64,000 bases of DNA from the NCBI GenBank assembly GCA_038867615.1, contig JAWBYA010000006.1:1-64000 (forward strand), read 5' to 3'. Both the position numbers and the translations under genes were made by a program. Position 1 is the first letter of the stretch; every line of letters starts with the position of its first letter. Below, in pieces: positions 15,167 to 38,070 of the stretch. Below the pieces are notes generated by a model. It saw only the letters and a program-made list of their open reading frames with translations. It was not told where the DNA came from and made no database searches. The DNA comes from Sulfolobales archaeon. GTDB lineage: Archaea > Thermoproteota > Thermoprotei_A > Sulfolobales > AG1.

Positions 15167-15223
15167 AAATAACCCAAACCAAACAATCCCTTTTTTATCC
15201 AATCTATCTCCACACCTGGGAAA

Positions 15224-15569
15224 CCGTTTGTCCCTGGATGTTCATCCCAATCATTTTTTTATTCATGGTCCATCCAGGGACTTCCACCTCAACCCTCAGG
15301 ATCTCTGATCCTGTGGGGTCATGGGCGGCCGTCGAGCCGAACGGCATGTGGCTCCCATCTAGCTTGCTCCCCGGATGGCTTGGAGCGCTGCTCTCATCAC
15401 CACCCAGGGCTTGTGTGGGGAGACCCACACTGGGGACGATATCTTTCAAAGCTTATAAATATCCTTAGGTGTTGGCGGGAGAGTGGCTTTCGGGCATGTC
15501 GCTCCCAATACTTATAAAAATTTCCAAAACCTATTAATCCTCACTATGCATATCAAAAAGAGAACAGCC
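15224..15569 (-). mobile_element. non-autonomous IS607-type mini-element (family A) retaining the omegaRNA and right end; left boundary tentative
   Basis: Homologous to nt 84-252 (AAGCCCTGGGTGGTGATG...CAGGGACAAACGG). No nuclease ORF. Internal TATA (TTTATAAG) upstream of the RNA region. Putative left end GGCTGTTCTCT. Confidence 0.72.
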
Positions 15570-15950
15570 CATAGACAGATTTTCCAGGCTTCTATTCATG
15601 AAACCCAAACGCTATTAGCTGTTGATATTGTTTTTATACCAATCACACGCTCCCTCGATCCCATAGACCTCGATGTAAGGATAACCCCTGATCCATAGCT
15701 GTGAGGGTATTGATTCTCCATAGATAATCGATAACCGGTATCGATTATTTAAAGCTTTTATTAAACCCGGGCGGATCGGCGTGGTTATTAAAAACGCGAT
15801 GCCGGTATACATAGCATCCCAGATAGATAGAAGTGCTAGTATATTGTTCCACACATCTATAGTAAAGTTATAACAATTATATGCATACTTATTAAGATCA
15901 ATACTAGTCCTTATAAGCTTAGATATGATTTTGGATTCGGTGAATTAATA

Positions 15951-17755: not shown

Positions 17756-20700
17756 GCATAAAGATCAGTAGGAGAACCTATATCAAAGGAGCCCTAGCAG
17801 CAGCGACTCTCGCAGTCTTTCTAGGAAGCTACTGGGAGGTTGCTGATAAGATTATAAGGCCTAAGAGGCAGTTCTACGAACCCGACCTCCAGTTCGGAGA
17901 CAACGTTAGATATGTCTACTCAACATGCCTAGGCTGTAACGTGAGGTGCGGTATCAGGGCACGTGTGGTGAGATACGGCGATGTCGAGGTTATCGAGAGG
18001 ATACTAGGCAACCCGTATCACCCATATAACAGGGCAGTATCCTTTGAGAAGCAGGTTAACGTCTACGAACACCTACCCTACGTAACCCCTGTTAAGGAGG
18101 CCCTGGAGAAGTGGAGTGGCAGACTATGCCCCAGAGGTGCTGACGGAATACACTATGTCTACGACCCATACAGGGTTCTCAAACCCCTTAGGAGGGCTGG
18201 CCCGAGGGGTAGTGGTAAGTGGAAGACCATAAGCTGGGAAGAGCTGATCAAATGTGTTGTCGAGGGCTGCACAATACCAGAGACCGGGGAGAGGCTTCCA
18301 GGCCTTAGAGAATTCTTCGCTTATGGAAAGCTTAGAGACGCGGGCTTCGAGGATCCCAACAAGGTTCTCTCAGACATTAAGAAGGATTCAGACGCTATAA
18401 TGGCTATGGCAAAGGATCCCACAAAAACCTACGACGATATAGTCAAAGCAATAGAGGATTTCAAAGCCAAGTGGTCCAGGATCCTGGGTGAGAGAGGGTT
18501 AAAGCTCGAAGATATACTCATAAACCCCGACAGACCAGACCTGGGAACCAAGGCTAACATGGTAATATGGCTCAGAGGCAGGGGCCAGGATAACGCAGAT
18601 ATCTTCTATAGAAGATGGCTCTACGCCCTCGGCAGCGTTAACTGGGCGAGACACACATCAGCATGCCAGCTGGGCTACTATGCTGGCAACTACCTCTGGT
18701 CCGGGTATTACGATCTACAGCCGGATCAGAGTGCAAAGGTATTAATAGTCGCCGGCGTAGAGATGGGGAGAGTCCATCCCGGAGCAACAGGGCAGGGTCT
18801 CCTTATAGAGAAGGCCGCTAATGGAGAGCTAAAGCTCTACTACGTCAACCCAGTAGCACCGAGAACAAGGGCTAGGGGTAACATAGTATGGGTTCCCATA
18901 AAGCCGGGCGAGGATACAGCCCTAGCATTCGCAATGATAAGATGGATGTTGGAGAACAAACGTTATAACGAGAGCTTCCTCTCAGCACCACACCTCAAAG
19001 CGGCTGAGAAGCTCGGCTACCCAGTCCACACAAACGCTACATGGCTCGTGATATCTGAGGAGGGTCACCCGAGGTTCGGCGAGTTCCTAAAGGCTAAGGA
19101 TGTCAAGCTCGAGGATTCGGAAAAAGCTGTAGTGTGGACTGGTAAGGAGTTCGCAGTATACGATTCCGTCGATAAGGCTGAACTCCTCTACGAGGGCAGA
19201 GTGACACTAGCCACGGGAGAGACTGTTACTGTTAAGACTGCTTTCAAGATACTCTACGACGAGGCTTTCAGCCGCACATTCGAAGAATGGCTCGCCATAG
19301 CAAGCCCCTACAAGCCGGGAACACCGGAGTTTATGGACTATGTTGAGACTGTGAAGACTATGATCAAGGACTTCGCAGATGCCGCCCCGATGGCTGCAAC
19401 ATGGATCCACAGGGGTGTTGCTATGCACTCAAGCGGCGAGTATATAGTGTGGAGCTACAGGATCCTGGACACACTTATAGGCAACTACCACAGGAAGGGA
19501 GGCCTGCTAGGGCGTCCTAGCACGACAAGCTATAACTCCTACCTCTACGATCTCGGGGACGCCGGGTTCGGAGAGCCTGTGAAATGGGGACCTCCCATAG
19601 GTAGGCATAAATATAGCTATGAAGACACACTTGAGTATTGGCTAAGAGTCAAGAAGGCCTTGAAAGAGGGTAAAACAGGCGTTGATGCCGTGAAAGAGGC
19701 ATTCCCAGCGAAGAGGCCTTGGTATCCACACACACCCGAGGAGATATATACCGAGATATTCGCCGGCATAGCCGAGGGATACCCATACCCCGCTGGAGCC
19801 CTAATACTCTACTACGCAAACCCCGTCCTATCCTCCAACTACGGGGCTAAGTATATCGAGGTGCTTAAGGATACTAAGAAGCTACCGCTATTCATAGGCA
19901 TAACCACCACGATTAACGAGACCTTCCTATATGCTGACTATATAGTGCCGGACACAACATACCTAGAAACCGGAACCCTCGGCGTCCAGTTCCTATACGC
20001 CGCTGGCCTTGGCGTCCGCATAGCTGAGGCCTGGCGCTCTCCCGTCATAATGCCGCTGACACAGTATATAGGTACATGCCCCAATGGGCATCCAAGATAT
20101 GCTTCTATGTGGGAGTTCCTGATCGACACTGCTAAAGCCCTCGGAATGCCGGGTCACGGGGATAAGGCGTTCAGGGGTACCAAGGGTAGGAAATACGAGG
20201 GCCAGTGGTTCTCAATGCACTGCCTGTGGGAGTATATCATGAGGGTATATGCTAATGCCGCGGTCCACGCAAAGGATCTCAAGATCATTCCCGAGAGCGT
20301 ACCAGCCGAGGAGGTCGGGTTTGTTGAGAAGAACTACCCAATAGCAAGGTTCAAAGACATACTACCCCCTGATGAGTGGGCATACGTAGCCTATGGACTG
20401 GCTAGGGGAGGTGTGTTCACAAGCTATGAGGACTCATTCGACGCCCGCGGAATATCAAAGCGCCCGGTACCCGGGGACAAGGTGCTCAAGTTCTGGAATG
20501 AAAAGCTAGCTAAGACGAAGAATAGCATTACGGGGGAGAAGTTCTACGGAGGCCCCAGATACTTCCCAGCAGCAACATACGCCCCCATACCAGGGCTTGC
20601 TCTCGCCGAGGCTAAGAAGGATAAATGGCTCCATGGAACACCCTTAAGGCAGGCCTATAAATATGAGGAGTGGCCCCTCACCCTCATCTTTGGCAGCGGC

Positions 20701-21288
20701 CCGTTGTTCACAAAGCATAGGAGCCAGTTCTACTACTGGTTAAAGCAGATAATGCCCGAGAACTTCGCCATAGTGAATCCAGAGGATGCCGCGAGATATG
20801 GCGTGGAGACAGGCGATATAATCAGGGTTGAGACTCCAGAGGGCTCTATAGAGGTGCCCGCAGTTGTTTCAACAGACGTAGCCCCTGGCTCTATCTATAT
20901 ACCCTATGGTATGGGTAGGTGGGCTGAGACAGTGACTGTCAAGCCTAAGTACTTTAAGATAAAGGGCTTCGAGAAGCTTGCCGACGAGATCCCGGAGCGT
21001 GTTGAGATACCTGAGGATGCTGTTAACCCCGTGAGAAAGCTTCCAAGCATTGTGAAGAAGATACTCTTCACCAAGAGCCCGGCCGAGTATTATGAGAAGG
21101 GTCTAGAGCCTGATAGATGGAGATTCAATGGAGTAACACCAAACCTAGTTGAAGCATCAGACCCCTCACTAAAAGGCTGGCCACTGCTAAGCTGGCTAGG
21201 CGGGGCTCAGACATATTACGAGACACCAGCACGCATAGCCAATACTGGTAGGAAGCACAAGTTCGAAGCCCCCTACATAGTCTGGTGA
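17752..21288 (+). CDS. ttrA: TtrA-like molybdopterin oxidoreductase (tetrathionate or archaeal arsenate reductase clade)
   Basis: SRRTYIK Tat motif, CLGCNVRCG, GNPYHP, LCPRG..YDPYRV..PLRRAGPRGSGKW, ADYIVPD; B-C-A gene order. Confidence 0.8.
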   Translation: MSIKISRRTYIKGALAAATLAVFLGSYWEVADKIIRPKRQFYEPDLQFGDNVRYVYSTCLGCNVRCGIRARVVRYGDVEVIERILGNPYHPYNRAVSFEKQVNVYEHLPYVTPVKEALEKWSGRLCPRGADGIHYVYDPYRVLKPLRRAGPRGSGKWKTISWEELIKCVVEGCTIPETGERLPGLREFFAYGKLRDAGFEDPNKVLSDIKKDSDAIMAMAKDPTKTYDDIVKAIEDFKAKWSRILGERGLKLEDILINPDRPDLGTKANMVIWLRGRGQDNADIFYRRWLYALGSVNWARHTSACQLGYYAGNYLWSGYYDLQPDQSAKVLIVAGVEMGRVHPGATGQGLLIEKAANGELKLYYVNPVAPRTRARGNIVWVPIKPGEDTALAFAMIRWMLENKRYNESFLSAPHLKAAEKLGYPVHTNATWLVISEEGHPRFGEFLKAKDVKLEDSEKAVVWTGKEFAVYDSVDKAELLYEGRVTLATGETVTVKTAFKILYDEAFSRTFEEWLAIASPYKPGTPEFMDYVETVKTMIKDFADAAPMAATWIHRGVAMHSSGEYIVWSYRILDTLIGNYHRKGGLLGRPSTTSYNSYLYDLGDAGFGEPVKWGPPIGRHKYSYEDTLEYWLRVKKALKEGKTGVDAVKEAFPAKRPWYPHTPEEIYTEIFAGIAEGYPYPAGALILYYANPVLSSNYGAKYIEVLKDTKKLPLFIGITTTINETFLYADYIVPDTTYLETGTLGVQFLYAAGLGVRIAEAWRSPVIMPLTQYIGTCPNGHPRYASMWEFLIDTAKALGMPGHGDKAFRGTKGRKYEGQWFSMHCLWEYIMRVYANAAVHAKDLKIIPESVPAEEVGFVEKNYPIARFKDILPPDEWAYVAYGLARGGVFTSYEDSFDARGISKRPVPGDKVLKFWNEKLAKTKNSITGEKFYGGPRYFPAATYAPIPGLALAEAKKDKWLHGTPLRQAYKYEEWPLTLIFGSGPLFTKHRSQFYYWLKQIMPENFAIVNPEDAARYGVETGDIIRVETPEGSIEVPAVVSTDVAPGSIYIPYGMGRWAETVTVKPKYFKIKGFEKLADEIPERVEIPEDAVNPVRKLPSIVKKILFTKSPAEYYEKGLEPDRWRFNGVTPNLVEASDPSLKGWPLLSWLGGAQTYYETPARIANTGRKHKFEAPYIVW

Positions 21289-21372
21289 TCCGAACCAGAA
21301 CAATAATTATAGTTTTTTCTCCCCAACCACTCTATATGTTTTTTCTATCTAATCTTCCAGCATGCTGAGTAT

Positions 21373-21846
21373 TTGAGGCGATATGCTGTAAAAACCATGG
21401 TGGGATCCCTGGATAGAGCCTCCCTCTACCTAGCCATGGCGCTCGCACTCCTAGGGGTTAGAGAGGGTGTTGAGTTCTCCAGAGAGCTCGGAGCTGATCT
21501 CGAGGGATGCGATAGGAGGATCCTCAAAGCATCGATCCTAAGGGTAGATTACGACCCTGTAACGCGCAGCCTTCTACCAAGAGCAATAGCAGAGTTCTAC
21601 GAAAACACCGGTTTCGAAGCCGTAGAGGAGCCTGACAGCCTGGTGACAATGCTAACCTTCATAGCCCAGCTGGCAAGGCAAGACAGCATAGAATCACTCA
21701 AAATACAGCATAGGTTTTTAAGAGTACATCTAATCCCAACACTAGCCCACGCAGTAGAGAAATGCCAGGGCCTAAAACCATTCCTAGACATCGTAATAGA
21801 GGATGCAGACTATCTAAAACAAATGCTAACAACAGACTCTAGATAA
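21373..21846 (+). CDS. TorD/DmsD-like molybdoenzyme chaperone
   Basis: FYExxGF..EPD...LxF, QHRFLRVHL; directly downstream of the operon. Confidence 0.7.
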   Translation: MRRYAVKTMVGSLDRASLYLAMALALLGVREGVEFSRELGADLEGCDRRILKASILRVDYDPVTRSLLPRAIAEFYENTGFEAVEEPDSLVTMLTFIAQLARQDSIESLKIQHRFLRVHLIPTLAHAVEKCQGLKPFLDIVIEDADYLKQMLTTDSR

Positions 21847-22270
21847 AACAGACCCCACTACCTGGCAAAAATCGGAGTAGGTCTGAAGATTCAAATGCCT
21901 CTGCGTTACCTAATTTTGGTAACGCGCGGAATATCGAGAACCATTGTAGTGTTAGGACGTGACTGTTTCCTCCAAGAACTATTCCCATGCATTGGGAAAG
22001 ATCTACTTGGAATTAGTTGATATCGCCCTCAACTATGAATCTAATGCTGTTAGGGTTGTTCTATTTCCTCACATCCCCAAGCATCTCTTCAGGGATCTCT
22101 ATACCCTATAACACCTAGAGCCTATGTGTTTCTCTAGCTACCGGGCTTTAGTATGCTTCAAACCTCTTCTATCTAGCAGTGTGGTTAGGGTTATTCTGAT
22201 AGCTACTAATATTGTCTTTCGAAAGATACGGGCTTTAAAAACCATCTACCTCTTCATAAAACTTGGGATG

Positions 22271-23080
22271 CTATTTGCATCCTTCTCTAAGAGTTATCAT
22301 GGATATCCATATTCCGTTTGACACCTGCTCTGTTCGCGAGAAGTTTTGATTGAGACAGGGTTCGGTATTGAGCAGTCTGTGGTGGTGTGGTATGTGGTCA
22401 TGATCGCTTGTGAGGATCAGCATGTATATCTTTTCATCCTTGATCTCACGGATCTTCTCCTTTATAGCTGTGTGCCTCTCGTAGGGATCTAGGCCGATAA
22501 TATTCATGGCAACCGCCCCGCTTTTCAAGACAGTGTCTGAGAGACTCTTTTCTACCCTATCAGCCAGGCTGTGCATTCTCCCATGCTCGATATTTTCGAA
22601 GGCTTGAGATATTTTCCGCTCGCTAGCACCTGCCTTTAACAATGCATCCAGGATCTCTGGTATTAATACTTTCTCATCATACTCTATATGATCCTCCATG
22701 GCTTCGTGGTGAACAGCTGCTCTTGACGCAAGATCCCTCCCCCAGCCTTCTGTGATATAGGTTAGTGTTTTTACGAGATCCTTAAACCTATACTCAATCG
22801 TTAGATGGATATCTTCTAACTCCCTGATCAACATACGTCTTTTGGGAAAAGAACCCAGCAGGTCAGCAAGTATAGCCAAAGCCTCCTCATTCCTCTCATG
22901 GTGCGAGATAAACGCGTCCTTAAACTCCATATACAGCGGCAACACCTGCTCAAAAGGCTCCTTCTCACCCAGCATGTATGACGATGATGCAGAGAGTAGC
23001 AACGCGTTTAAAGGTCTCCTAAAAACCCCATGCTCCCTAACAAACTCATCCAGCCACTTAGAGCCTGCTCTATGGAGCAA
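22271..23080 (-). CDS. hemerythrin-like (HHE) domain fused to a DUF2249-like domain
   Basis: EH, HHxxxEE, H and HIxxxE..LIP pattern; C-terminal GLDPYERH..I....DHD. Confidence 0.6.
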   Translation of the reverse strand: MLHRAGSKWLDEFVREHGVFRRPLNALLLSASSSYMLGEKEPFEQVLPLYMEFKDAFISHHERNEEALAILADLLGSFPKRRMLIRELEDIHLTIEYRFKDLVKTLTYITEGWGRDLASRAAVHHEAMEDHIEYDEKVLIPEILDALLKAGASERKISQAFENIEHGRMHSLADRVEKSLSDTVLKSGAVAMNIIGLDPYERHTAIKEKIREIKDEKIYMLILTSDHDHIPHHHRLLNTEPCLNQNFSRTEQVSNGIWISMITLREGCK

Positions 23081-23127
23081 AACTAACAGCTCTTAAACAT
23101 AGTATCGCTTGGGGGGTATATATATTA

Positions 23128-23143
23128 GTTTACAGATGTAAAC
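23128..23143. promoter_or_regulatory. palindromic operator candidate at the hemerythrin-gene promoter
   Basis: GTTTACA-GA-TGTAAAC next to a TATATATA run; extra half-site GTTTACAGA near 23154. Confidence 0.45.
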
Positions 23144-23542
23144 ATAGCTATGGGTTTACAGAGAACATATAAGTTCTTCCACGCCATCCACTGGAAAGAA
23201 TATCCAGGGAGCGCATCCCTCTCTATCAAGACCCGCGATCTTAGCGATATGCACCATCCGCATCACGTCCACACAGAACTCCACAAACAGGTGGTGAGAA
23301 GAGCATCTAAGACAGAGGTTATGCTATTCTCCTACGAGGACTTATACTTATTTAATACAGATCCAGCTATGAGCAGATTTCAACATCGGTCTTGGATGAA
23401 AGGAGCGCGCCTCAAGCGGCTTGACGATGACCTTTCAGTAGATTGAGATCCTTGCAGGCTGGGCGTTAATTCCTAGGTATAAAGACAGTATAAAGACAAA
23501 GCTTCAGCCCTTAATGATCTATTTATAGTTAAACCATCTCCG

Positions 23543-23595
23543 GGATCAGCCCGTTGCTCGCATCACAGCTCAGAGCCGTCACCGTTCATCATTTA
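23543..23595 (-). ncRNA. box C/D guide sRNA
   Basis: Minus strand reads ATGATGA-ACGGTGACGGCT-CTGA-..GTGATG-CGAGCAACGGG-CTGA (C, D', C', D with 11-12 nt guides); TTTATAT about 35 nt upstream. Confidence 0.75.
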
Positions 23596-23656
23596 CTACC
23601 ACATCCAAGTTCTCTTCCTTCAGGCGGATATAAATTGGAGACACGGCTTAGGTTTG
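23576..23656. repeat. degenerate direct repeat, copy A (sRNA 5' half plus promoter); copy B at 25285-25356
   Basis: Shared ordered blocks CCGTC(A/G)CC..TCATCA, GTTCT, TTCCTT, GGATATAA(A/G)TTGGAG, GGCTT, GTTTG. Confidence 0.7.
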
Positions 23657-23663
23657 CCAAGCT

Positions 23664-25286
23664 ATAGCCCTGCTGTAGTGGTTTTCATAAAAGTTTATAA
23701 GAGTTGGTAAATGTTATAGTGGCCTAAGTAGGTTTGCCAGAGGTTGGGGGATAAGTTATATAAACCCTGCAAATATATTGGGGGAGGCGGTTCGGGTTCA
23801 AAGAGCTAGGGGGCTCTCAAAAATCTCGGCTGGAGAAGCCGAACTATGGTATAGAAACTCTAGCTATAATAATAACTCAGCTGGAAAACCCATGGAATAA
23901 GATCCCATGTATATGGTGATTAGAGATGCGGGGAAATCAATATAAGATCCTCAGCTATAAGATAAAACATAATTATGAGGTAAAAGATTTTCTAGTAGAG
24001 TATAAGCGTGTTCTACAGAGGGCTATTGATATTATATGGAATAATATTAAGTGGATCGAGAGGGAGAAGAAGAACTACTATTACATAGTTAAGAATGACG
24101 GAAAGCTAGTGAAAAAATACTATAAAGTTAAGAGGTTGATCCCAAAAATACTAAGATCCAGTTCTTTTAAGAGGAAATTAAGGGAGGAATTGTTGAGAAA
24201 CTGGGGATATGCTGCTCACTATATAGATTCAGCTATTAAGACAGCATACTCAATAATAAATTCGTGGCGCAAGAACTACTTAAAAGGATTAAGAAGAAGG
24301 AGCAAGCCCACTATTAAGAGAGAATTTGTGAGAATAAAAGAAACACTATACAGAGTTAAGGATAGTAAGGTAGTTGTTACGATAAAGCCTCAGAAGATCT
24401 ACCTAGAGTTCGATTTATCGAAAGCATGGTTTAGAAGGAGAGTTAAGGGACTTGAAATGGGAGAATTAATATTGAAAGAAAAAGAACTAATAATAACATA
24501 TAGAAAGAATGCTGAATCCCAGAAGCCTCAACTGAGAATAGGATGGGATATTAATATACACACACTAGACGGGTTCTCACCAAAACTTGGATGGATCAGG
24601 ATCAGCCTAGCCGAATTACACCATATCCATAGGGTTTATGAGATTAAGAGAGCCAGGGCTCAAAGTATAGCCTCTAAAAAGCCCTCTATTAAGAATATAG
24701 TCTCTAAGTACGGCTCTAGGGAGAAAAATAGATCTAGGGATTTCGTACACAAACTAACTACAGATCTGGCTAGAATGTTTCCACACACAATACACGGATT
24801 CGAAGATCTAGAGAAACAAGGGATGTATAGCAATTTCAAGAAACATAATAGGGAGATCTCTAAGCAGAACTGGAAACAAATAATCCGGAACATGAGTTAT
24901 AAGTCTAATATTAAACTAGTAGATCCTAGGGGTACTTCTTCAACCTGCCCCATGTGTGGGGATAGGGTTATAAAGCTCCGAAAGGGGCAGGTTGTAAAAT
25001 GCCCCAGATGTAATCTAATTCTAGATAGGCAATTGTGTGGTGCCATAAATATATACCTTAGGATGTGCGGATTTCCCCAGGAGCCGAGCACCTTCTACAG
25101 AGCGGTGATCAGAAAAATGATCCCTCTGTGGAAGGAGCGGATGAGGCTCCTGGGAAGGGTTACCGCGAATGGGGGAGAGGGCTGTGACAAGCCCCCGAGG
25201 AACCCAGGAGGGGGTGGGAGCCTGATGATCCCCAAGGGTCTAGGGCTGATATCTTGTGATATCAGCCACTATGAGACCCAAACCCC
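23664..25286 (+). mobile_element. IS607-type element (family B) with decayed tnpA remnant and full-length tnpB
   Basis: Left end ATAGCC..GCTGT..GGTTT(T)CAT..GTTTATA and right end CTATGA..CCC.AACCCC both match 62260-62610; a frameshifted SAGK..GIRSH remnant of the IS607 TnpA C-terminus lies near 23878-23908. Confidence 0.75.
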
Positions 25287-25308
25287 GTCGCCAGTCATCA
25301 CGTTCTAA
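23926..25308 (+). CDS. tnpB: RNA-guided endonuclease TnpB
   Basis: RuvC-I GWDIN, RuvC-II FEDL, TSSTCPMCG...CPRC zinc ribbon, DRQLCGAINI. Confidence 0.9.
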   Translation: MRGNQYKILSYKIKHNYEVKDFLVEYKRVLQRAIDIIWNNIKWIEREKKNYYYIVKNDGKLVKKYYKVKRLIPKILRSSSFKRKLREELLRNWGYAAHYIDSAIKTAYSIINSWRKNYLKGLRRRSKPTIKREFVRIKETLYRVKDSKVVVTIKPQKIYLEFDLSKAWFRRRVKGLEMGELILKEKELIITYRKNAESQKPQLRIGWDINIHTLDGFSPKLGWIRISLAELHHIHRVYEIKRARAQSIASKKPSIKNIVSKYGSREKNRSRDFVHKLTTDLARMFPHTIHGFEDLEKQGMYSNFKKHNREISKQNWKQIIRNMSYKSNIKLVDPRGTSSTCPMCGDRVIKLRKGQVVKCPRCNLILDRQLCGAINIYLRMCGFPQEPSTFYRAVIRKMIPLWKERMRLLGRVTANGGEGCDKPPRNPGGGGSLMIPKGLGLISCDISHYETQTPSPVITF

Positions 25309-25356
25309 GGTTCTATTTCCTTGGGCAGGATATAAGTTGGAGTATAGGCTTGTTTG
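25285..25356. repeat. degenerate direct repeat, copy B (orphan C box, guide and promoter on the minus strand)
   Basis: Minus strand GTGATGA-CTGGCGACGG is cut off by the element end; aligns with 23576-23656. Confidence 0.7.
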
Positions 25357-25407
25357 TGGGCTTCTGTTGATTGGGAAGTCCTTAATATCTCAATAGCTTA
25401 AACCTCT

Positions 25408-26280
25408 TTGGTGACCATGGAGGCTTTCTTTAGAAGTGTTTTGGTTATAGCTAGGTATGAGGTTAGGAGGGCTCTTGCTAGGAAGAAGGTTCTTGCTGGT
25501 GTGCTCCTCATAGTGGCTTCACAGATTCTTGGTGTATATGCGTATTCAGAGATCCTGAGGACTGTGAGGACTGTGAGGACTGCGGGATTGCCTATGGCTC
25601 CTGAGCCTTCGCTCGCATGGATCTTCTCCTACTTCCTCCCATCCTATTTCCTCTCAGGTCTTGCGGCCCTCATAGCATCTGGATCTTTTTCTGAGGAGTT
25701 TGAGAAGGGGCACTCGGAGCTTCTCTTCACGAAGCCTGTTACAAGGCTTGAGATCTTTTTGGGAAAGCTTCTCGGGGGGTACGGGTTGCAGGCTTTCTTC
25801 GTAGTACTCTTCCTCATATTATCGCTCATAGCTTCATCCATAGCTTTCGGTCCGCAGAGTGAAGTTGGCCTGGCGCCAGAGATCCTGGTTGCTAATATCT
25901 ATTCCAACATGGTTTTCTTCTCAATAGCAATGGCTCTCAGCATCATCACTAAGAACACTCTTATATCGAGCACAGTACCCCTAGCCCTGCTCCTCTTCCT
26001 CCCATTTATAAGCGGGATCCTGATCTTTCTTGAGAGGAGCACAGGGGCTAGCTACTCCCTCCTTGTTAGACTACTCCCAACATGGGGTTCTCTCCTACAG
26101 GCATACATAATACCAGCAGAGATCCTCCAGAAGGCTTTCATAGTATCACCACTCGTCTTAGCCCTCTACGGCTACGGCGACCCTCTAGGAGCAGCTATAT
26201 CTGTCGCGGGCTACTCGATCCTCTTCTTCTCAATATCCCTCCTAAAAATCCTCTACGAGGATATACCGAGAAGATCCTAG
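25408..26280 (+). CDS. ABC-2 type transporter permease
   Basis: EEFEKG..LLFTKPVTR.EIFLGKLL motif, about 6 TM helices. Confidence 0.8.
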   Translation: MVTMEAFFRSVLVIARYEVRRALARKKVLAGVLLIVASQILGVYAYSEILRTVRTVRTAGLPMAPEPSLAWIFSYFLPSYFLSGLAALIASGSFSEEFEKGHSELLFTKPVTRLEIFLGKLLGGYGLQAFFVVLFLILSLIASSIAFGPQSEVGLAPEILVANIYSNMVFFSIAMALSIITKNTLISSTVPLALLLFLPFISGILIFLERSTGASYSLLVRLLPTWGSLLQAYIIPAEILQKAFIVSPLVLALYGYGDPLGAAISVAGYSILFFSISLLKILYEDIPRRS

Positions 26281-27224
26281 ATCCTGCTTCTAAGATACTC
26301 AACCACAGCCTCGAAACCCCTAGACACTACCCCGGGATCTATCTGGGCTCCCGCCACATGCGGATGCCCCCCGCCCCCAAGCTTCCAAGCGATCTCAGCA
26401 CAGTTGATATTCTCAGAACCCCTCGCTATAATCACAGCCCCGTTCTTATACACAACAAATGCTAGATCGTATCCCCTTCTACCACTCTCCCTCACAGCTA
26501 TTCTAGAACCAACCACAGGGTCTGAGATGATCACTAGGGCCTTATAACCGCCTATAACAACCTCGCGGGAGTTGTTCCTAATATCCTCAATAGCTTTTCT
26601 CTTCCTCTCAATAGCCAGAGCCCATTTGCTATCAACCTCATAATCCCAGAAAACGCCTTTCGAGAATTTGAGGGCGAGTCTCTTGAGGAAAGCCTTATCG
26701 CCTTCAGCATAGAGGCTATATCTAATAGTATCTGTGAGGGGTTCGGAGAGCGGGTGTCTAAACAACCCGTAATCAGTATCTCTCGATAATTCTAGAAGGG
26801 GCTTTAAGGCCGGGTCGCTCTCCACGTTAAAGAACCTAGCCATATTCTCAGTAGCTGTTCTAGACCTATCTATATAGAGATCTATATAGCCGAGTCTCTC
26901 TGCAAAGGATAATACCTCATCCCTCCACACATGATGATCCACCCACGAGATCTTCTTAGAAGGACAGCCCACCAGGGATTCCGCGAGGATCTCTATATGC
27001 CTCTTACCAGGGTTGAGATCAGATATAAGGATCTCTATAGAACCATTGGATCTGCAGCTCTTCCTAAGCAGCCTACCAAGATCCGCCCAAGCGCTGAGAT
27101 CATAGCCAACTAGGTATAGCCTCCTAGAACCCGTGTTTCTAAGAGCTATAGCAGCAGATCCAATACCATCTACATCCTCCTCGTGAGAGACTATATATAC
27201 CTGACCCGAGACAGCTCCCACCAC
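26277..27224 (-). CDS. DHH/DHHA1 family phosphoesterase
   Basis: H..DVDG, SDL, VDHH, GGGGHPHVAGA. Confidence 0.85.
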   Translation of the reverse strand: MVGAVSGQVYIVSHEEDVDGIGSAAIALRNTGSRRLYLVGYDLSAWADLGRLLRKSCRSNGSIEILISDLNPGKRHIEILAESLVGCPSKKISWVDHHVWRDEVLSFAERLGYIDLYIDRSRTATENMARFFNVESDPALKPLLELSRDTDYGLFRHPLSEPLTDTIRYSLYAEGDKAFLKRLALKFSKGVFWDYEVDSKWALAIERKRKAIEDIRNNSREVVIGGYKALVIISDPVVGSRIAVRESGRRGYDLAFVVYKNGAVIIARGSENINCAEIAWKLGGGGHPHVAGAQIDPGVVSRGFEAVVEYLRSRI

Positions 27225-27340
27225 ACAGGCTCTCCAGCAATATTAACACACAATATATATACATGTTTTTTAACTAGTCTATGATAAAAATCTTTCAACC
27301 ATCTGTAAAGCTTTTTAAGCCTGGTAAGCAATGCATCTTG

Positions 27341-29134
27341 GTGATTCCTTTTGGTGATGCCCTCGGAACTCGGGGTGACGGACATGGAAATTCAGTAAAG
27401 ATAAGAGCAGCCGACGCTCTAGTAAAGGCTATGAAGAACTTAGGAGTTAGACACGTCTTCGGAATACCTGGAGGAAGCATAATGCCTGTATACGATGCCC
27501 TCTACGATGCCGAAGATATAAAGCACTATCTATTCAAACACGAGCAGGGAGCCATACATGCTGCAGACGCCTATGGAAGGATCACTAAGAAGCCAGGGGT
27601 AGTGCTTGTAACAAGCGGGCCTGGAGCCACAAACCTCGTTACAGGGCTAGCCAACGCCTATATGGATAGCTCCCCCCTGGTCGCTATAAGCGGGCAGGTT
27701 GCAACACCCATCCTCGGTAGAGACGGGTTCCAGGAGACAGATATAATCGGGGTAACATTCCCAATAACAAAGCTCAACATGCAGGTGAGATCTCCTGACG
27801 ATGTTGTGAGCGCCTTCACAACAGGCTATATAGTCTCTACCGAGGGGAGACCGGGCCCTGTCTTGATAGACATACCAAGAGACGTTCTTCTCGGTAGCAC
27901 CGGATCTATAGAGCCTATACCCAAGATCCATCCCAAGACCTTCGGGGGAGAGCCGAGCAGGGAGGAGATTCTAAAAGCCCTCAGGCTCCTCCTCAACGCT
28001 GAGAGACCAGTGATCCTTGTTGGTGGGGGTGTGTGCTGGAGCGGTGCTTGGGATGATGTGATAACCCTTGCAGAGATCCTCTGGGCACCGATTGTCTCCA
28101 CATTTCCCGGGAAGAACTGTGTGCCCAACGATCACCCACTCTACCTAGGCCCCTCAGGAATGCATGGAAGGCTTGAGGCCGACGCAGCCCTAGCCAACGC
28201 TGATGTAGTGCTAGCAGTTGGTACTAGGTTTAGCGATAGAACTGTAGGTAGGTTTAAGGAGATGAATATGAAGACCATAATACACATAGATATAGATCCC
28301 AGCGAGATTGGTAAGAACGTTAGAACAGAGGTCGGGATCGTTTCAGACGCTAAGAAAGCTCTAAAAGCGATGCTCAGAGAACTCCCCTCAGCAATCCAGG
28401 AAGAGTATAACAGACAACACAGCGGTAGGAGAAGCTTCATCGCATGGCTAAAAGAGATCAGGAGAAAATACGAAGAACATATAGAAGCCAGGGTTGGGAG
28501 TATGAAGCCATTCGCGCCATGGAAGGTGCTCAAAGTGCTTAGAAGAACAGTCCCCCCAAGCACAATAGTAACCACCGGGGTTGGGAGTCACCAGATGTGG
28601 TGCGAGCTCCACTGGGATGTCTATATCCCGGGGACGTTTATAACGAGCGCCGGGCTCGGGACAATGGGTTTCGGGCTGCCGGCAGCATTAGGCGCTAAGA
28701 TCGCTGCTAGTAATAGGCCTGTTATGCTCATAGACGGCGACGGATCTTTCCAGATGACTATGAACAACCTATCCCTAGTAAGAGACTACGGGTTACCCAT
28801 AATAGCTGTTATCTTTGACAACAGGGCTCTGATGCTTGTGAAACAATGGCAGATCTATATGTACTCCAGAAGAGTTATAGCAACAGAGTTCACCAAAAAC
28901 CCCGACTTCGTAAAAATAGCCGAGGCGTACGGGATAGAGGGTTATAGACCCTCATCATACGAAGAGATCGAGAGCATAGTTAGGAGGGCTTTGAGAACAG
29001 ACGAGCCTGTAATTATAGACATAGAGCTTGATAATGAGAAGGACATAGTCCTCCCATGGGTAAAGCCCGGGGAGTGGCTTACAAACGCAGTACCGCCTGA
29101 GGGGTTAGAGGTGGATCTGGTTTGGAGAGGGTGA
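27341..29134 (+). CDS. ilvB: acetolactate synthase large subunit (start uncertain)
   Basis: FGIPGG, HEQGA, TSGPGATN, FQETD, GLGTMGFGLP, GDGSFQM. Confidence 0.92.
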   Translation: MIPFGDALGTRGDGHGNSVKIRAADALVKAMKNLGVRHVFGIPGGSIMPVYDALYDAEDIKHYLFKHEQGAIHAADAYGRITKKPGVVLVTSGPGATNLVTGLANAYMDSSPLVAISGQVATPILGRDGFQETDIIGVTFPITKLNMQVRSPDDVVSAFTTGYIVSTEGRPGPVLIDIPRDVLLGSTGSIEPIPKIHPKTFGGEPSREEILKALRLLLNAERPVILVGGGVCWSGAWDDVITLAEILWAPIVSTFPGKNCVPNDHPLYLGPSGMHGRLEADAALANADVVLAVGTRFSDRTVGRFKEMNMKTIIHIDIDPSEIGKNVRTEVGIVSDAKKALKAMLRELPSAIQEEYNRQHSGRRSFIAWLKEIRRKYEEHIEARVGSMKPFAPWKVLKVLRRTVPPSTIVTTGVGSHQMWCELHWDVYIPGTFITSAGLGTMGFGLPAALGAKIAASNRPVMLIDGDGSFQMTMNNLSLVRDYGLPIIAVIFDNRALMLVKQWQIYMYSRRVIATEFTKNPDFVKIAEAYGIEGYRPSSYEEIESIVRRALRTDEPVIIDIELDNEKDIVLPWVKPGEWLTNAVPPEGLEVDLVWRG

Positions 29135-29349
29135 TAAAAATAGGGGCTTGCATGGGTATGGATTCTCTCGCAAGGGTGATAAACACTATTAGAAGGGGGA
29201 AGGTGCAGGTGCTAGAGGTCTCGTCGAAACTAGGATCTAACGGCGATATAAACATAGTGATAAGGGTTAGGGGCGAGGAGAGCGAGATAGAGTGGATCAG
29301 GAAAAAAATATTAGTCCTGGTAGACGTAACCAGTGTTGAGGTGCTCTAG
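29122..29349 (+). CDS. ACT-domain acetolactate synthase small subunit
   Basis: 75 aa ACT-like protein (LARVINTIRR...LVDV) between ilvB and ilvC. Confidence 0.7.
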   Translation: MERVIKIGACMGMDSLARVINTIRRGKVQVLEVSSKLGSNGDINIVIRVRGEESEIEWIRKKILVLVDVTSVEVL

Positions 29350-30316
<967 letters not shown>

Positions 30317-30336
<20 letters not shown>

Positions 30337-30607
30337 CTCGGGATCCCTTTATCCCGAGTAGCCTGTTCCTAATAATCTTTATAGCTCTCCACCAGCTATA
30401 GAGCCACACAGCCGTTAGGATAACCCCGTATAACCCTATCGATAGCTCTCTAAAGGGCGATGATAGATCTAAGAGGATCCTTACACCATAGCTCAAGAGC
30501 AATATATATATGATAAGTATAGCTAAGCCTGATGCATATATTGCGAGGAGGTTTCTCAAGGCTAGGGCTAGTCTAGAGAGATCTATCTCTCTATTGGTAT
30601 TCATCAC
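30317..30607 (-). CDS. small two-TM hypothetical membrane protein
   Basis: ORF directly downstream of Alba with two hydrophobic segments. Confidence 0.55.
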
Positions 30608-30612
30608 ACCAC

Positions 30613-30894
30613 CTAGATCTTCCTCGAAACCTTTATCTCTATATAGGAGATCCTCTTATTCCTCTTAGTATATGTCGACCCTATGCTCACATCCCTAAGC
30701 TCTAAAGCGTTCCCCAGCCTATCCCTAAGGATATTATAGACAGTAACAGCCTTCGGTATATTCTTACTCCTACCAATTATAGTTATATTATCGCTACCCT
30801 GGTTCATCCTAACTATTATGTCAAGCGCATATCTATAAGGCCTCTCCCTACCAATAACGATAACCTCCTCCCTGGCAGAACTCATAGCAACCAT
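30613..30894 (-). CDS. Alba family (Alba2-like) nucleic-acid-binding protein
   Basis: VIG....Y.L...I.GR..NI.KAV...IGS...ISYIEIKV. Confidence 0.8.
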   Translation of the reverse strand: MVAMSSAREEVIVIGRERPYRYALDIIVRMNQGSDNITIIGRSKNIPKAVTVYNILRDRLGNALELRDVSIGSTYTKRNKRISYIEIKVSRKI

Positions 30895-31040
30895 TTACAA
30901 CCCCACCATATTATTATTCCACATATTATAACCTTCAACTCTCCCCAACCGTGGAAGGATCTTGTAGGGAGTGTTGAGACAAGCCTGCTGAGAACCAATG
31001 CTTACTAGCCCCAGAGCCCTAACTCTACGGGGTCTGCTAG

Positions 31041-32513
31041 GTGCTTTTGGAGAGGCTGGGCCAGTATAGGTTTGGATCTTCTAGATCGCCTGAATGGGGA
31101 TCCGGAGGGATCTTTGGCCTAAAATACCATGGAGGCTATCTCTATTTTATGCTATCCATGGATGCCAAGGCTTATTTCGTTTCAAAGGATCATGTTAAGA
31201 TCTATGGGTTAGACCTTATAGGAAAACCCCCGAGATCTGGTGGTGATACATATAACGCCTCCGATGCTATTGATAACAAGATCTTTTTTGGAGGCTGGGT
31301 TCACGCACCTATAAGCATATCCCATGACAGGAGGGTTGATTTCAGCAATAAGTATTCACATATACATGTCTTCAACGCAGACGAGCAGGAGGTAAGGCTC
31401 TTATGGAGCGAGACAGGGGGTTATAGAGATACATGGGTCGGGGAGGTTTCAAACATACTCTACGATCCAGTAGGCCAGAGGTTATTAGTATCGAGGGCTG
31501 ATGGTAGCACAAACCTGGGAGTATATTCAGTAACACTCGATGGTAAGTCGGAGAGGCTTAGCGATAGACCAAGCCTTAAAGGAACACTTCTATGGGATCT
31601 GGCATGCTTCGACATATCCATGGGCTTCGAAGGATTCAGGGGGATACAGTGCCTAGATCTTGTTGAGGGGAGATGGTTCCAAAGAATCCCCGGAGATCTA
31701 TCTAGGATCTCTGTAGATGGTGGTAGCGTGACCAGAGCAGGTGTAGGGGTTATGGCGAGCATGTATAACAGGATCTTCGTCTTCGTGAGAGGGGGTCTCA
31801 TTATATGGGAGCCCTGGGAGAGGGAGGGCGAGGATCTATATTTCCTAAGACTATTCGACTTCCCATCAACCGACTACGGGCCCTTGAGGACATCATACAC
31901 ACACCTAGGAGGAGGGATCCTGGTACCTTTCAACACGTATCCCCACGGGATCCTGAGGGCCTCTGATGAGAAGCTCCTAGAGATTGCTAGAAGGCTTAAC
32001 AGCCCGCCAGCACCAACACTCCTCACATATATAGCCCCACCAACAATAAGGATCCTATGCCCCCTAGGAGCTAGGATAACATCGCTAGAGAGCCTCGGAG
32101 ATAAGATCGTTCTGGGAGCAAACACACAGCCAAACCTGGGCGGGGGAGACGCAAACCACCTTGACACGGGGGATAGAAGCCTACTGATCCTCTCAACAGA
32201 CACTCTCATGAGAGGATGCGGAGGCAGCATTGCTATAAGCATGAGAGGACTTGACATCGGTACAACGAGATGGGGAGGGATACCGGTGTCTTCGCTAAGT
32301 AGGGCTTCACTAACGATCTATGCCTCTAAGGATAACGAGCTGAGGGTTTACGAGTACGAAGCCTCGCTACCCCCAAGAATGCTGAGTACTGAGAAACACC
32401 TGATTAGGGGTGGGAAGAACACACTAGATCTCAAGGCCTATAGAGGAGTAGTGAGTTTCGAGCTTAGGGAGATGGATGGCGATGCAAAGATCCATATCGA
32501 TCTAACACCATGA
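31041..32513 (+). CDS. DUF2139-like conserved crenarchaeal protein
   Basis: PEWGSGGIFGLKYH, GGDTYNA, FGGWVHAP, FSNKYSHIH. Confidence 0.7.
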   Translation: MLLERLGQYRFGSSRSPEWGSGGIFGLKYHGGYLYFMLSMDAKAYFVSKDHVKIYGLDLIGKPPRSGGDTYNASDAIDNKIFFGGWVHAPISISHDRRVDFSNKYSHIHVFNADEQEVRLLWSETGGYRDTWVGEVSNILYDPVGQRLLVSRADGSTNLGVYSVTLDGKSERLSDRPSLKGTLLWDLACFDISMGFEGFRGIQCLDLVEGRWFQRIPGDLSRISVDGGSVTRAGVGVMASMYNRIFVFVRGGLIIWEPWEREGEDLYFLRLFDFPSTDYGPLRTSYTHLGGGILVPFNTYPHGILRASDEKLLEIARRLNSPPAPTLLTYIAPPTIRILCPLGARITSLESLGDKIVLGANTQPNLGGGDANHLDTGDRSLLILSTDTLMRGCGGSIAISMRGLDIGTTRWGGIPVSSLSRASLTIYASKDNELRVYEYEASLPPRMLSTEKHLIRGGKNTLDLKAYRGVVSFELREMDGDAKIHIDLTP

Positions 32514-32588
32514 GGTAAAACCTGGAAAACCTATGCATATTTATCTACAACAAAATAAACTCCTATATATCTCCTAAAAAGGATTATA

Positions 32589-33599
32589 GTGAGCGGGTTG
32601 AGCAGCAGGCTACCCTTAGTGGCTGTCTTTGGAGACTGGGATGCTGATGGTATCATAGCCTCCGCTGTTATAGTTAGCTCCCAGAGATATGGAAACGTCT
32701 ACCCCATTAACGGTGAAGCCTTGATCGAGTATACTCCTGCAGAGCCCCTCTACCTCTCCAGAGTTCTCTCCAAGAGTAAGTGTTATGATGCCCTCGTTAT
32801 CCTCGATATACCCCTCATAGATCCTGTTCTCAGCGTTCTCAGAACCTATAGATCTGGATGCGGCTCCTCCAGGATCATCTATATAGATCACCATATAACA
32901 TCACACGAAAAGCTCGAGGATCTCTACGGCTTGGTTGACGAGCCACTAATAGGCTATGTCCCCACCTCAAGAATAGCTCTCGATAGAGCTGTCTCAGCAG
33001 GCTTCAAGCCCAGCGAGAGGTTGAGATCCTTTGTCGAAGCGGTCCATCTAATGGATCAGGGTCTCAAGATCCCGAGCAACATGATAAGCCTCTACAGGGT
33101 TGTCTCAGGGATCTCTAAAGCCCTAGCGAGTAAGAAAGACCCCTCGCTCTGGAGAAGGGCTGTTGAGTGGATCTCATCACCAATACCGCTCCCAAACATA
33201 CCAGGGGAATCTATGGCGGAGATCGCTAGACTCGCTAGAGAGGCTGATAAGAGGATCAAGGAGGAGGCTAATCTCCTAGCAATATCAGCCCAGAAGCTCG
33301 GGATCTTCAAATACATCGATGCTAGGAAGAGATGGAAGGGTAGGGGTGCAAGTGCCCTTGCATCAGCACTCTATAGAAAGCTGAGGAACCCAGTGATCCT
33401 CTGTGTAGCTGGGGGCGAGGGACACGTGCTCCTAATAACCAGGCTTCCTGGGAAGGCTTATAGGGTTATAAGGATCCTGAGGGAATCTGGGATCGCTGTT
33501 AACGTGGGAGGCCACTCATCCCTAGGGATAGCAAGGATCCCTGAGAACAGGCTTGGAGAAGCCCTCGAGCTGTTGAGGAGGATATCTTATAGCCTCTAG
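32589..33599 (+). CDS. DHH family phosphoesterase
   Basis: DWDADG, ILDIP, YIDHH, GGH. Confidence 0.8.
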   Translation: MSGLSSRLPLVAVFGDWDADGIIASAVIVSSQRYGNVYPINGEALIEYTPAEPLYLSRVLSKSKCYDALVILDIPLIDPVLSVLRTYRSGCGSSRIIYIDHHITSHEKLEDLYGLVDEPLIGYVPTSRIALDRAVSAGFKPSERLRSFVEAVHLMDQGLKIPSNMISLYRVVSGISKALASKKDPSLWRRAVEWISSPIPLPNIPGESMAEIARLAREADKRIKEEANLLAISAQKLGIFKYIDARKRWKGRGASALASALYRKLRNPVILCVAGGEGHVLLITRLPGKAYRVIRILRESGIAVNVGGHSSLGIARIPENRLGEALELLRRISYSL

Positions 33600-33655
33600 A
33601 CTCTTTAATAAGGATATATGGATGCTGGGTGAATCATATTATGGGTATAGCACCA

Positions 33656-35458: not shown

Positions 35459-35704
35459 CATCTCAACTCCACACGAGATCTTGGGTATCGATAATAACAA
35501 GCATGAAGATCCTCAGAGCCGCCTGTATCTATTACAAACCCTAACACCAATTACCTACCCATAGAATCGTTAGAAGATCTCTACCTACGATCTTATATGG
35601 GATACATAACAGGGATTCTAGCTTGGATCTATGGTTATCTTCACAGCTCAATAGCTATCTCGATACTTATTTTTATCCTTGGGCTCATATATTGTGAGGC
35701 ATAG

Positions 35705-36493
35705 GTGTTGGCTGAATCTGTTGCCAAGTCGATTATCGAGAGCGTCCTGGCAGAATATGTTAAACGTATCGTTGAGAAGGCCTCCAAAGGTAAGAGGCTG
35801 AGCGACTGGGAGGTTGGGATACTTATGATAGACTATACCAGATCCATTATGAATGAGAGGATAAGTAGTGTTGAGAAAAGCCTAAGCGAAAGAATTAATA
35901 ACGTTGAGAAAGGTCTTAATGAAAGAATTAACAACATAGAGAAAAACCTCAGCGAAAGGATCAACAACGTTGAAAAAAGCCTCAACGAAAGGATTGACAA
36001 TGTTGAGAAAAACCTAAATGAAAGGATCAATAGTGTTGAAAAAAGCTTAAGTGAGAGAATCAGCAGTATTGAAAAAAGCCTTACAGATAGAATTGACAGC
36101 ATCGAGAAAAGCCTCAACGAAAGGATCAACAACGTTGAAAAAAGCCTCAACGAAAGGATTGACAATGTTGAGAAAGATCTTGGCGAAAGGATTAATAACG
36201 TTGAGAAAAGTCTTACAGATAGAATCAGTAATACCGAGAAAAACCTTAATGAAAGGATTAATAACGTTGAGAAAAGTCTTAATGAGAGAATCAATAGTGT
36301 TGAAGAAAGCTTGGGTGAGAGGATTGATAACAGAGACAAGCTGGTGGCAGAGAAGATAGAGAGTATAAATGCAAGGCTTAAAAAGGTGGAGGATGATATA
36401 GACTATATTAAGAGGAGCCTTGATAGCCTGAGGGATAATGTGATAAATGTTCTTGTAGCAGAGCTTAAGAGGAGGATGGAGAAAGAGGTCTGA
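35705..36493 (+). CDS. paREP15-like coiled-coil protein
   Basis: LAEYxKRIVxKAxKGxxLSDWEVG N-terminus shared with 50965-51576; hendecad repeats. Confidence 0.75.
   Translation: MLAESVAKSIIESVLAEYVKRIVEKASKGKRLSDWEVGILMIDYTRSIMNERISSVEKSLSERINNVEKGLNERINNIEKNLSERINNVEKSLNERIDNVEKNLNERINSVEKSLSERISSIEKSLTDRIDSIEKSLNERINNVEKSLNERIDNVEKDLGERINNVEKSLTDRISNTEKNLNERINNVEKSLNERINSVEESLGERIDNRDKLVAEKIESINARLKKVEDDIDYIKRSLDSLRDNVINVLVAELKRRMEKEV
35849..36343 (+). repeat. about 15 tandem 33-bp (11-aa, LNERINNVEKS-type) coding repeats
   Basis: Counted from the translation and visible in the DNA. Confidence 0.9.
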
Positions 36494-36515
36494 GGATTCC
36501 AAGGGTCAGGCTAGG

Positions 36516-37814: not shown

Positions 37815-38070
37815 CCCAGGTTATATTATCACAAATCTTATTAAACCTTCCTATAGAGAACCCTGCCTATCTGTCCCAAACATGGCTTAACGTTCTTTTA
37901 CTATAGCTTATACCTAGTCATAGGTTTCTCTTTATCCTTGGATATGGAGAAAAGCAATGGATATCAATAAATATTAAGGGATAAGTGGCGAGCATGGGTT
38001 ATGGTGTGGTTTTAGTATAATAAGGCTTGTTGTTTTCAAAAATCTATTGTTTAGATAGGGTCGTGGGAAA

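Follow-up and report, generated by a model that had tools for sequence, protein, structure and literature searches.

What becomes of a conserved RNA gene when a transposon occupies it, and can the transposon itself bring what keeps the gene whole? The question is raised by a TnpB element that lies within a gene for a box C/D small RNA (sRNA) in a stretch of Sulfolobales DNA of 64,000 nucleotides (nt), referred to below as the window (positions 1-64000 of contig C6 from the draft genome G000, which comprises 2.2 Mb in 28 contigs and is 94% complete). The left end of the element is preceded by U*, an allelic copy, 86 nt long, of the 5' part of the sRNA gene with its leader and promoter, and an intact sRNA gene is found there; the right end is followed by the native counterpart of U*, here called the orphan. 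The element is known solely at this sRNA site, with U* wherever its left side is visible, and the orphans are lineage-specific. The metagenome runs in which the locus was found, 20 runs in 13 studies, are mostly from hot springs, and no RNA run is among the 24 that were listed.

Structure and distribution of the occupied locus

Element-free alleles were sought in 31 genomes (G000 and 30 relatives), only one of which, G003, has both flanks and no element. Its allele, ...GATCAGCCCGTTGCTCGCATCACGGCTCAGAGCC|GTCACCAGTCATCACGTTCC..., contains a single sRNA, and it differs by one base from the empty allele that an earlier note on this DNA had predicted (...CTCAGAGCC|GTCACCAGTCATCAC in G003). A 20-mer from the 3' half of the sRNA, used to scan metagenome contigs, matched two of them: L076, which is the left joint of the window again, and L075, a second empty allele, also with one sRNA. 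A tandem duplication in relatives without the element, which the note had named as speaking against its account of the locus (given below), is absent from both element-free alleles. Compared with these, the window has 1709 extra nt, exactly 23578-25286, between GCC (23575-77) and GTC (junction 23577|23578), consisting of U* and then the element. The insertion site, P1 (GCC|GTC), is a CC within the box C/D sRNA gene, and the sRNA of the window is chimeric, with a 3' part (23543-23577) common with the empty alleles and a 5' part (23578-23596) that comes from the inserted U*.

U* contributes 8 nt of the D' guide, the C box, a leader and a TATA promoter (GGATATAAATTGG, plus strand, 23627-23639). 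Beyond the right end of the element, which is CC (25285-86), the sequence continues with GTCGCCAGTCATCAC, on the minus strand GTGATGA-CTGGCGAC; the orphan thus retains a C box (GTGATGA, 25301-25295), 10 nt of D' guide and a promoter, and is without D', C' and D boxes. That these remains adjoin the right end, and that a diverged copy of them outside the left end completes an intact sRNA, had both been described in the earlier note and are borne out here. The likeness of the two flanks is also well beyond that of shuffled controls. The left and right flanks are aligned by blastn with 65.9% identity over 82 columns (23576-23656 against 25285-25356), and the Smith-Waterman score of U* against the orphan is 24, compared with 8.2±1.5 (maximum 16) for dinucleotide shuffles, none of 2000 reaching 24, and with 16 or less for ~2900 random 86-mers of the window. 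An earlier copy of this segment (U) was not found inside the element, where scores of 11-12 are no better than those of shuffles (~11±1.5), and among viral contigs neither a 20-mer of the right end nor a 22-mer of U* had a match.

The orphan is 93% identical to the sole copy in G003, and the alignment of U* with that same copy has 55 matches in 110 columns, non-homologous tails included. Of its first 41 nt, U* has 39 in common with the native L075 allele, among them an 8-nt stretch absent from G003; U* is therefore a natural allelic form and not a recent duplicate that has decayed. L075 agrees with G003 at every position from TTGGGCAGG on, and the alleles at the sRNA locus are mosaics. The outer end of U* (...GGTTTGCCAAGCT) aligns by eye with ...GTTTGTGAGCC|TCTGTTG in G003, at a second GCC site, P2, which lies 5' of the sRNA promoter (G003 ...GTGAGCC|TCTGTTG) and 86 nt from P1. 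The dinucleotide at the left joint is CT (23662-63) and not CC, as had been noted before, and since this joint (U* ...AGCT|ATAGCC) aligns with P2, the structure corresponds to the left side of a P2 insertion combined with the right side of a P1 insertion.

The arrangement recurs in G002, which is a different species of the genus. Its sRNA, U* and element are 99.7% identical to those of the window: there are 6 differences in the 1744 positions of 23543-25286, none of them in 23543-23785, and U* is identical. On the right side the first difference is at 25294, 8 nt past the right end, and identity is 74.7% for the orphan and 88-91% farther right; on the left side differences begin at 23542, and homology is gone by ~23513. 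In G000 and G002 alike, the insert is found in the same gene from which its copy is derived and which that copy restores, with identical U* and different orphans.

The distribution of the element could be followed further through its protein. The TnpB reading frame crosses the right end and takes its final residues from flank DNA (7 residues, PSPVITF, in G000, and 35 in G002, where TnpB is 488 amino acids (aa) long), so that the tails of near-identical TnpBs can be used as a census of insertion sites. Among ~15 billion proteins the TnpB cluster has 3 members, the next relative being 66% identical; both complete tails read through P1 (PSPVITF, PSPLIISM...), and the remaining member is truncated. 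There are 7 contigs that carry the 460-aa TnpB ending in the P1 tail. Joints were surveyed in the contigs of 4 runs from 4 studies (X13, X14, X16, X20), contigs being a form of data from which rare forms are dropped; those of X14, X16 and X20 (3 studies) contain the same two joints as the window and no others.

On the left, 15 kb of the window are 82-84% identical to G003, and on the right, 12.65 kb are 98% identical to it, the switch falling at the element; the non-coding DNA of the left flank is 54-73% identical per 100 nt. Beyond the right side of the 12.65-kb block (25287-37936) identity is 90%, and the block has the look of DNA recently transferred between species, with its left edge at the right end of the element. 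At 25556-25564 the window has, in an ABC-2 membrane protein gene, a 9-nt repeat unit that neither G003 nor the contigs of 3 runs contain.

Table 1. Features of the occupied locus, with positions in the window.
Feature	Position	Strand	Basis or remark
Intact dual-guide box C/D sRNA	23543..23596	-	Boxes read from sequence; 10 Rfam C/D families, sub-threshold
C box ATGATGA	23592-23586	-	Read from sequence
D' guide ACGGTGACGGCT, 12 nt	23585-23574	-	Read from sequence
D' box CTGA	23573-23570	-	Read from sequence
C' box GTGATGC	23566-23560	-	Read from sequence
D guide, 10 nt	23559-23550	-	Read from sequence
D box CTGA	23549-23546	-	Read from sequence
U*, allelic copy (86 nt) of sRNA 5' part, leader and promoter	23578..23663	-	Ends AGCT
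TnpB-only element of IS607-family ancestry, without transposase gene	23664..25286	+	Ends match MITE family; bounded by empty alleles
TnpB open reading frame, 460 aa	23926..25308	+	Pfam domains; structure match
Predicted omegaRNA scaffold	25167..25286	+	Overlaps 3' end of tnpB and right end; consensus fold
Predicted omegaRNA guide and former target, GTCGCCAGTCATCACG	25287..25302	+	Directly 3' of right end
Orphan native sRNA 5' part with promoter GGATATAAGTTGG (25328-25340)	25287..25372	-	93/100 nt identical to G003 locus

The restored sRNA and its guides

The gene completed by U* has the C and D boxes at its ends and the C' and D' boxes inside, with spacers of 12 nt and 10 nt, which is the arrangement of archaeal box C/D sRNAs. 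An Rfam scan of 20000-29000 gave 13 matches, 10 of which are C/D-box families placed on 23543-23596(-); all 10 are under their gathering scores (the top one, sR12, with 35.5 against 38 bits), which leaves the sRNA below Rfam's curated threshold for a box C/D family. In the same scan the orphan region (25287-25372) had no match. The dual-guide pattern is present in just 3 of 201 genomes of the order, namely G000, G002 and G003. Two other genomes, G001 (L008 ~1155-1210) and G005 (L007 ~1270-1320), have a different C/D sRNA (ATGATG...CTGA...GTGATG...CTGA) on the plus strand, 5' of the homologous ABC-2 gene and on the opposite strand to the sRNA of the window.

The 16S ribosomal RNA (rRNA) gene of G000 is interrupted by a contig end, and that of G002 was used for the pairing of the guides. 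The 16S sequence that the earlier note had given, GGCCGTCGCCAG, is indeed found at position 1054 of the full-length G002 gene, where it forms 12 of 12 pairs with the D' guide of G003, 2 of them G-U. The note had further claimed that both guide variants of the window can pair with 16S; this holds for the remaining 10 guide nt of the orphan, which are fully complementary (by hand), and for the 10 D'-proximal nt of the U* guide, which form 10 of 10 pairs with GGCCGTCGCC (8 Watson-Crick, 2 G-U), and fails for the 2 nt of the U* guide that adjoin the C box. The D' guide therefore has the rRNA complementarity of a box C/D sRNA. By the fifth-nucleotide rule, methylation is directed to the nucleotide paired with the fifth guide position from D or D', and the predicted target G in 16S, at position 1058 of the G002 gene, is the same for the U* guide. 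For the D guide, neither 16S (G002) nor 23S (G003) contains a match of 10 nt, tRNAs not being searched. Judged from sequence, the sRNA is probably functional.

Position 4 after P1 (window 25290) is G in both orphans (G000 and G002) and A in G003, L075 and U*; the G would form a Watson-Crick pair with 16S and the A a G-U pair. The 16S gene of G000 (C9:47278-48314) matches the model in pieces and ends at the contig edge, and that of G001 (C14:15775-18122) covers 2348 nt against a model of 1478 positions, which suggests rRNA introns in the genus.

The element begins with ATAGCCCTGCTG and its right end, ...CCCAAACCCC, finishes with CTATGAGACCCAAACCCC. At the DNA level it is single-copy in G000, whose contig C1 contains two other TnpB genes with 39-41% identity to that of the window. 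The protein matches PF07282 (Cas12f1-like TNB) with 43.3 bits for a cut-off of 26.3, and PF01385 (OrfB_IS605) with 27.7 bits, under the cut-off of 30.5. Comparison with the structure of ISDra2 TnpB (8bf8, E 1.7e-7) aligns the RuvC Glu (FEDL) and the last Asp (DRQLCGAINI), and the first RuvC Asp (GWDIN) was identified by eye only. Together, these are the TNB/zinc finger and RuvC catalytic residues expected of a TnpB. It is the sole large open reading frame (ORF) on the coding strand, the others that overlap the element being of at most 77 aa, and the insert has no integrase of its own, unlike a site-specific integrative element. The exact 10-mer AGGTTTGCCA occurs in the window only at 23650-23659 and 23730-23739, 80 nt apart; its copies flank the conserved core of the left end and could be a subterminal transposase-binding repeat, which would shift the true left boundary.

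A consensus fold of 7 related right ends has 26 pairs, 15 of them with compensatory changes, and supports the segment covered by it in the window, up to 25286, as the predicted omegaRNA scaffold; by analogy with described TnpB systems, the next 16 nt would be the guide. As the earlier note had stated, this predicted guide is antisense to the sRNA strand, at the C box and guide of the orphan. It mismatches U* at positions 4, 7 and 8, as also stated there, and in addition at 15 and 16; the mismatches are at position 4 for G003 and at 4, 8, 15 and 16 for L075. With five mismatches to U*, the restored gene should escape cleavage, and we infer its immunity from these positions.

IS607 ancestry is indicated by the nearest full-length relatives of the TnpB, which are 57-65% identical. 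In all five that were examined, homologous sequence is found directly 5' of tnpB, and in L063 the upstream ORF encodes a MerR-type helix-turn-helix (HTH) and, after it, the catalytic domain of a resolvase, as in the IS607 TnpA. The right ends of these relatives are ...GAACCCC and that of the window ...AACCCC. On this evidence the element belongs to the IS607 family by ancestry. IS607 is described as inserting at GG without target duplication, with GG termini and with ends that contain short direct repeats (Chen et al. 2018, PMC6188088), and as moving through a double-stranded intermediate with exchange over a 2-bp core (bioRxiv 10.1101/2023.11.20.567912). The "CC core" seen here is thus the IS607 GG on the other strand. 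Insertion at P1 (GCC|GTC) and a right end in CC agree with this, and the CT of the left joint appears unusual and not forbidden, unequal core dinucleotides at the two ends being reported from experiments (10.1101/2023.11.20.567912). The same source has the TnpB transposon-adjacent motif (TAM) coincide with the transposase target, and TnpB drive retention and homing.

A serine-recombinase TnpA is absent from the element, in which the 262 nt between the left end and tnpB hold no such ORF; the element is therefore an IS607 derivative and not a full member. Its end architecture is shared by the two TnpB elements on contig C1 and by a related family of 354-nt miniature inverted-repeat transposable elements (MITEs), with dozens of copies in each of G000, G002 and G003, left ends GCC-RTAGCCAGCTG... 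and right ends ...CCCGAACCCC. At both MITE insertions of G002 whose empty sites could be read in G000, a single GCC or GCT is kept and nothing is duplicated, so that the GCC heading the left ends must be target DNA, or its CC common to both joints. One MITE (62257-62610) splits an ABC-2 permease gene of the window (ORFs 61313-62206 and 62549-62917, minus strand). A different repeat of ~350 nt at 15222-15571, with many copies in G002 and G003 (73-90% identical), is probably another MITE family. An IS200/IS605-like identity was rejected on the tnpA of the relatives, the MITE alignments and the empty sites. The sole ORF with a resolvase domain in G000 (C23, 203 aa) was also set aside, having the ordinary domain order and no adjacent tnpB.

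How the arrangement may have arisen

The mode of origin is not settled between a block carried with the element, recombination between insertions at P1 and P2, and an old duplication. The explanation we favour, at slightly less than an even chance, is that U* and the element move as a unit. The TnpB element would insert at the CC of P1, inside the sRNA gene. Such an insertion alone would part the promoter, the C box and most of the D' guide from what remains of the gene; U*, placed between P1 and the left end, keeps the gene whole by joining its own 5' half and promoter to the resident 3' half, and the native 5' half persists as the orphan past the right end. The combination of a P2-type left joint with a P1-type right joint must be the outcome of recombination between two element copies, through a circle of the element and U or between alleles. 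A plausible route, which involves ordinary reactions only, has the element at both P1 and P2, flanking U, and the two copies recombining to release a circle of the element and U. The block of U* and element would later have passed between species-level lineages into the same conserved site, the orphans staying where they were. The predicted guide would match the orphan, which is the sequence of the unoccupied site, and mismatch the replacement copy.

Movement as a unit is favoured by the comparison of G000 with G002 and by the sharp boundary at the right end, as well as by the fact that no allele with an insertion at P1 only or at P2 only was seen. The earlier note had gone further in proposing that a circular intermediate captured flank DNA in a donor and then integrated at the sRNA in the manner of an attP site. 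The CC core, the intermediate described for IS607 and the block shared with G002 are in accordance with that proposal, and the circle joints and cognate TnpA that would go with it were not found in the contigs of the 4 runs and in G000, respectively.

A more specific form of the favoured explanation, which we regard as tentative, is that U* and the TnpB element are a homing unit that brings a cleavage-immune spare for the half it displaces. Equally tentative is its second part, that the omegaRNA guide would read the part of the sRNA that is kept constant by the C box and by complementarity to rRNA; with its target held constant, unoccupied sites in many lineages would be targets.

Several observations weigh against movement as a unit. 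The block is known from two lineages only, and since the 3' half of the sRNA is conserved, its left limit cannot be placed more finely than 23543-23577. Neither circle nor excision joints were present in the contigs of the 4 runs, in which rare forms are lost. Other copies of the family, in which the earlier note had proposed to look for the carried segment, do not have it: left/right likeness was found in none of 21 full-length MITEs and in neither of 2 other TnpB elements (scores of 6-15, the 99th percentile of the null being 15), and with 0 of 23 copies carrying such a segment, carriage is not a habit of the family. As for the enzyme, neither an IS607-type TnpA nor a Y1 transposase was found in G000 (94% complete), and IS607-type TnpA homologues are present in 5 of 5 other genomes of the genus. 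The only IS607 copy examined in the genus (G003:C4) has a TnpB that is 24% identical and unrelated ends, and the left-end motifs were not found in the IS607-type relatives or in the IS607 copies of the genus. Lastly, homologous recombination inside the element would produce just such a switch in identity to G003 there, and the G common to both orphans at position 4, where the empty alleles and U* have A, suggests that the element took a small number of flanking bases along; this is unexpected for an exchange at a CC core.

These last two points are better accommodated by allelic homologous recombination, an alternative to which we give clearly less weight than to the favoured explanation and more than to any other. 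A P2 insertion in one lineage, harmless because it lies 5' of the promoter, and a gene-breaking P1 insertion in another, made independently or by a local hop, would have been joined by a crossover inside the element. In that case the element would carry nothing, and the duplication would be a by-product that happened to restore the sRNA. Both joints resemble ordinary CC-site joints, the divergence of U* from the G003 type is about that of other non-coding DNA in the left flank, L075 gives evidence of fine-scale allelic mosaicism at the same locus, and no aberrant transposase reaction is required. It would however require P1 insertions in two lineages with different orphans and, in addition, a P2 insertion, all within 86 nt, whereas no allele with one of these insertions by itself was seen, a P2 tail is found in 0 of 3 members of the TnpB cluster, and the 4 runs hold no other joints. 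The left crossover in G002 would moreover be confined to ~35 nt.

An older tandem duplication of the 86-nt segment, with one insertion at the junction of the copies and single-copy alleles produced by later collapse, appears improbable. The junction ...AGCC|GTCGCC... would provide a normal GCC target, and L075, whose left part resembles U* and whose right part resembles G003, is what the collapse of a repeat would give. Both element-free alleles are however single-copy, and the contrast between the orphan (93%) and U* (55/110) in their likeness to the G003 copy would put the duplication long before the origin of the species, although G000 and G002 have a 100% identical U*. Least probable is an assembly artefact in which two strains were joined through the shared 1.6-kb element, for while G000 (28 contigs) and G002 (~70 contigs) are drafts and identity to G003 switches at the element, two strains would yield four types of joint and just the two of the window are seen, in contigs from three studies, with the P1-tailed TnpB on 7 contigs and the same architecture between other flanks in G002.

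Comparison with known systems

On the prevailing view, TnpB elements persist because they cut the vacant site and are then copied into it again. A conserved gene offers them a good address for homing, yet insertion costs the host that gene. At the locus described here, a TnpB element is found in a conserved RNA gene whose loss is offset by a spare at the left end of the element, and the pair is common to two species. If the pair moves as a unit, it would be a new way for a transposon to render itself harmless, and insertion sequences might by such a step have approached site-specific integrative elements. If the tentative homing unit is real, it would be the DNA-level counterpart of the homing endonucleases of introns and inteins and of attP sites that restore tRNA genes, and a motor for the swapping of halves of methylation-guide RNAs between species. 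In addition, the orphan and the replacement copy make a natural pair of matched and mismatched targets for an archaeal IS607-type TnpB.

The closest known systems are IS607 and its TnpB-only and MITE derivatives. The likeness lies in a TnpB that is 57-65% identical to TnpBs encoded after a MerR-HTH/serine-recombinase tnpA, in the ...AACCCC right end, in insertion at CC without duplication (2/2 MITE sites) and in the omegaRNA-like fold of the right end. Unlike IS607, the element of the window is without tnpA, and none of IS607 type was found in G000. Its core is C-rich on the tnpB strand, where the bacterial TAM is given as TGGG, and it is flanked by an 86-nt allelic repeat, which the family, in the descriptions on which we draw, never produces.

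There are archaeal and bacterial integrative elements whose attP contains a piece of a tRNA gene, and their integration makes that gene complete again. As in these, the inserted DNA replaces the displaced part of a small-RNA gene, the native part is orphaned, and the same gene is used in different hosts. The insert of the window differs in being 1.7 kb long and without integrase, and in replacing the 5' half and promoter and not the 3' part; its replacement is ~66% like the native part, and site-specific integration is here only putative. IStrons, in which IS605 or IS607 elements are fused to a group I intron (10.1101/2023.11.20.567912), are comparable as TnpB-bearing transposons that, as described there, neutralise their own insertion in the interrupted gene. 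Here, in contrast, a spare part of the gene would make good the damage in the DNA itself, without RNA splicing; the Rfam scan of 20000-29000 gave no intron-like RNA.

A search of the literature, at the level of titles and the starts of abstracts, supplements excluded, found no description of a TnpB or IS607 element in a C/D sRNA gene, and as far as these searches show, the pairing of such an element with a replacement half of its target C/D sRNA gene is apparently undescribed. The outcome of such a pairing is nevertheless familiar from Pyrobaculum, whose C/D sRNA genes are reported to be composite, transposed and duplicated (Lui et al. 2018, PMC6009581). The exchange of modules at our locus resembles the guide replacement, composite sRNAs, nearby pseudogene remnants and MITE-like copies reported there. 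The portion of that paper on which we draw names no TnpB or IS607 agent, whereas the swap of the 5' half in the window is physically tied to one, and the locus in this way offers a concrete mechanism by which archaeal C/D sRNAs can evolve in modules.

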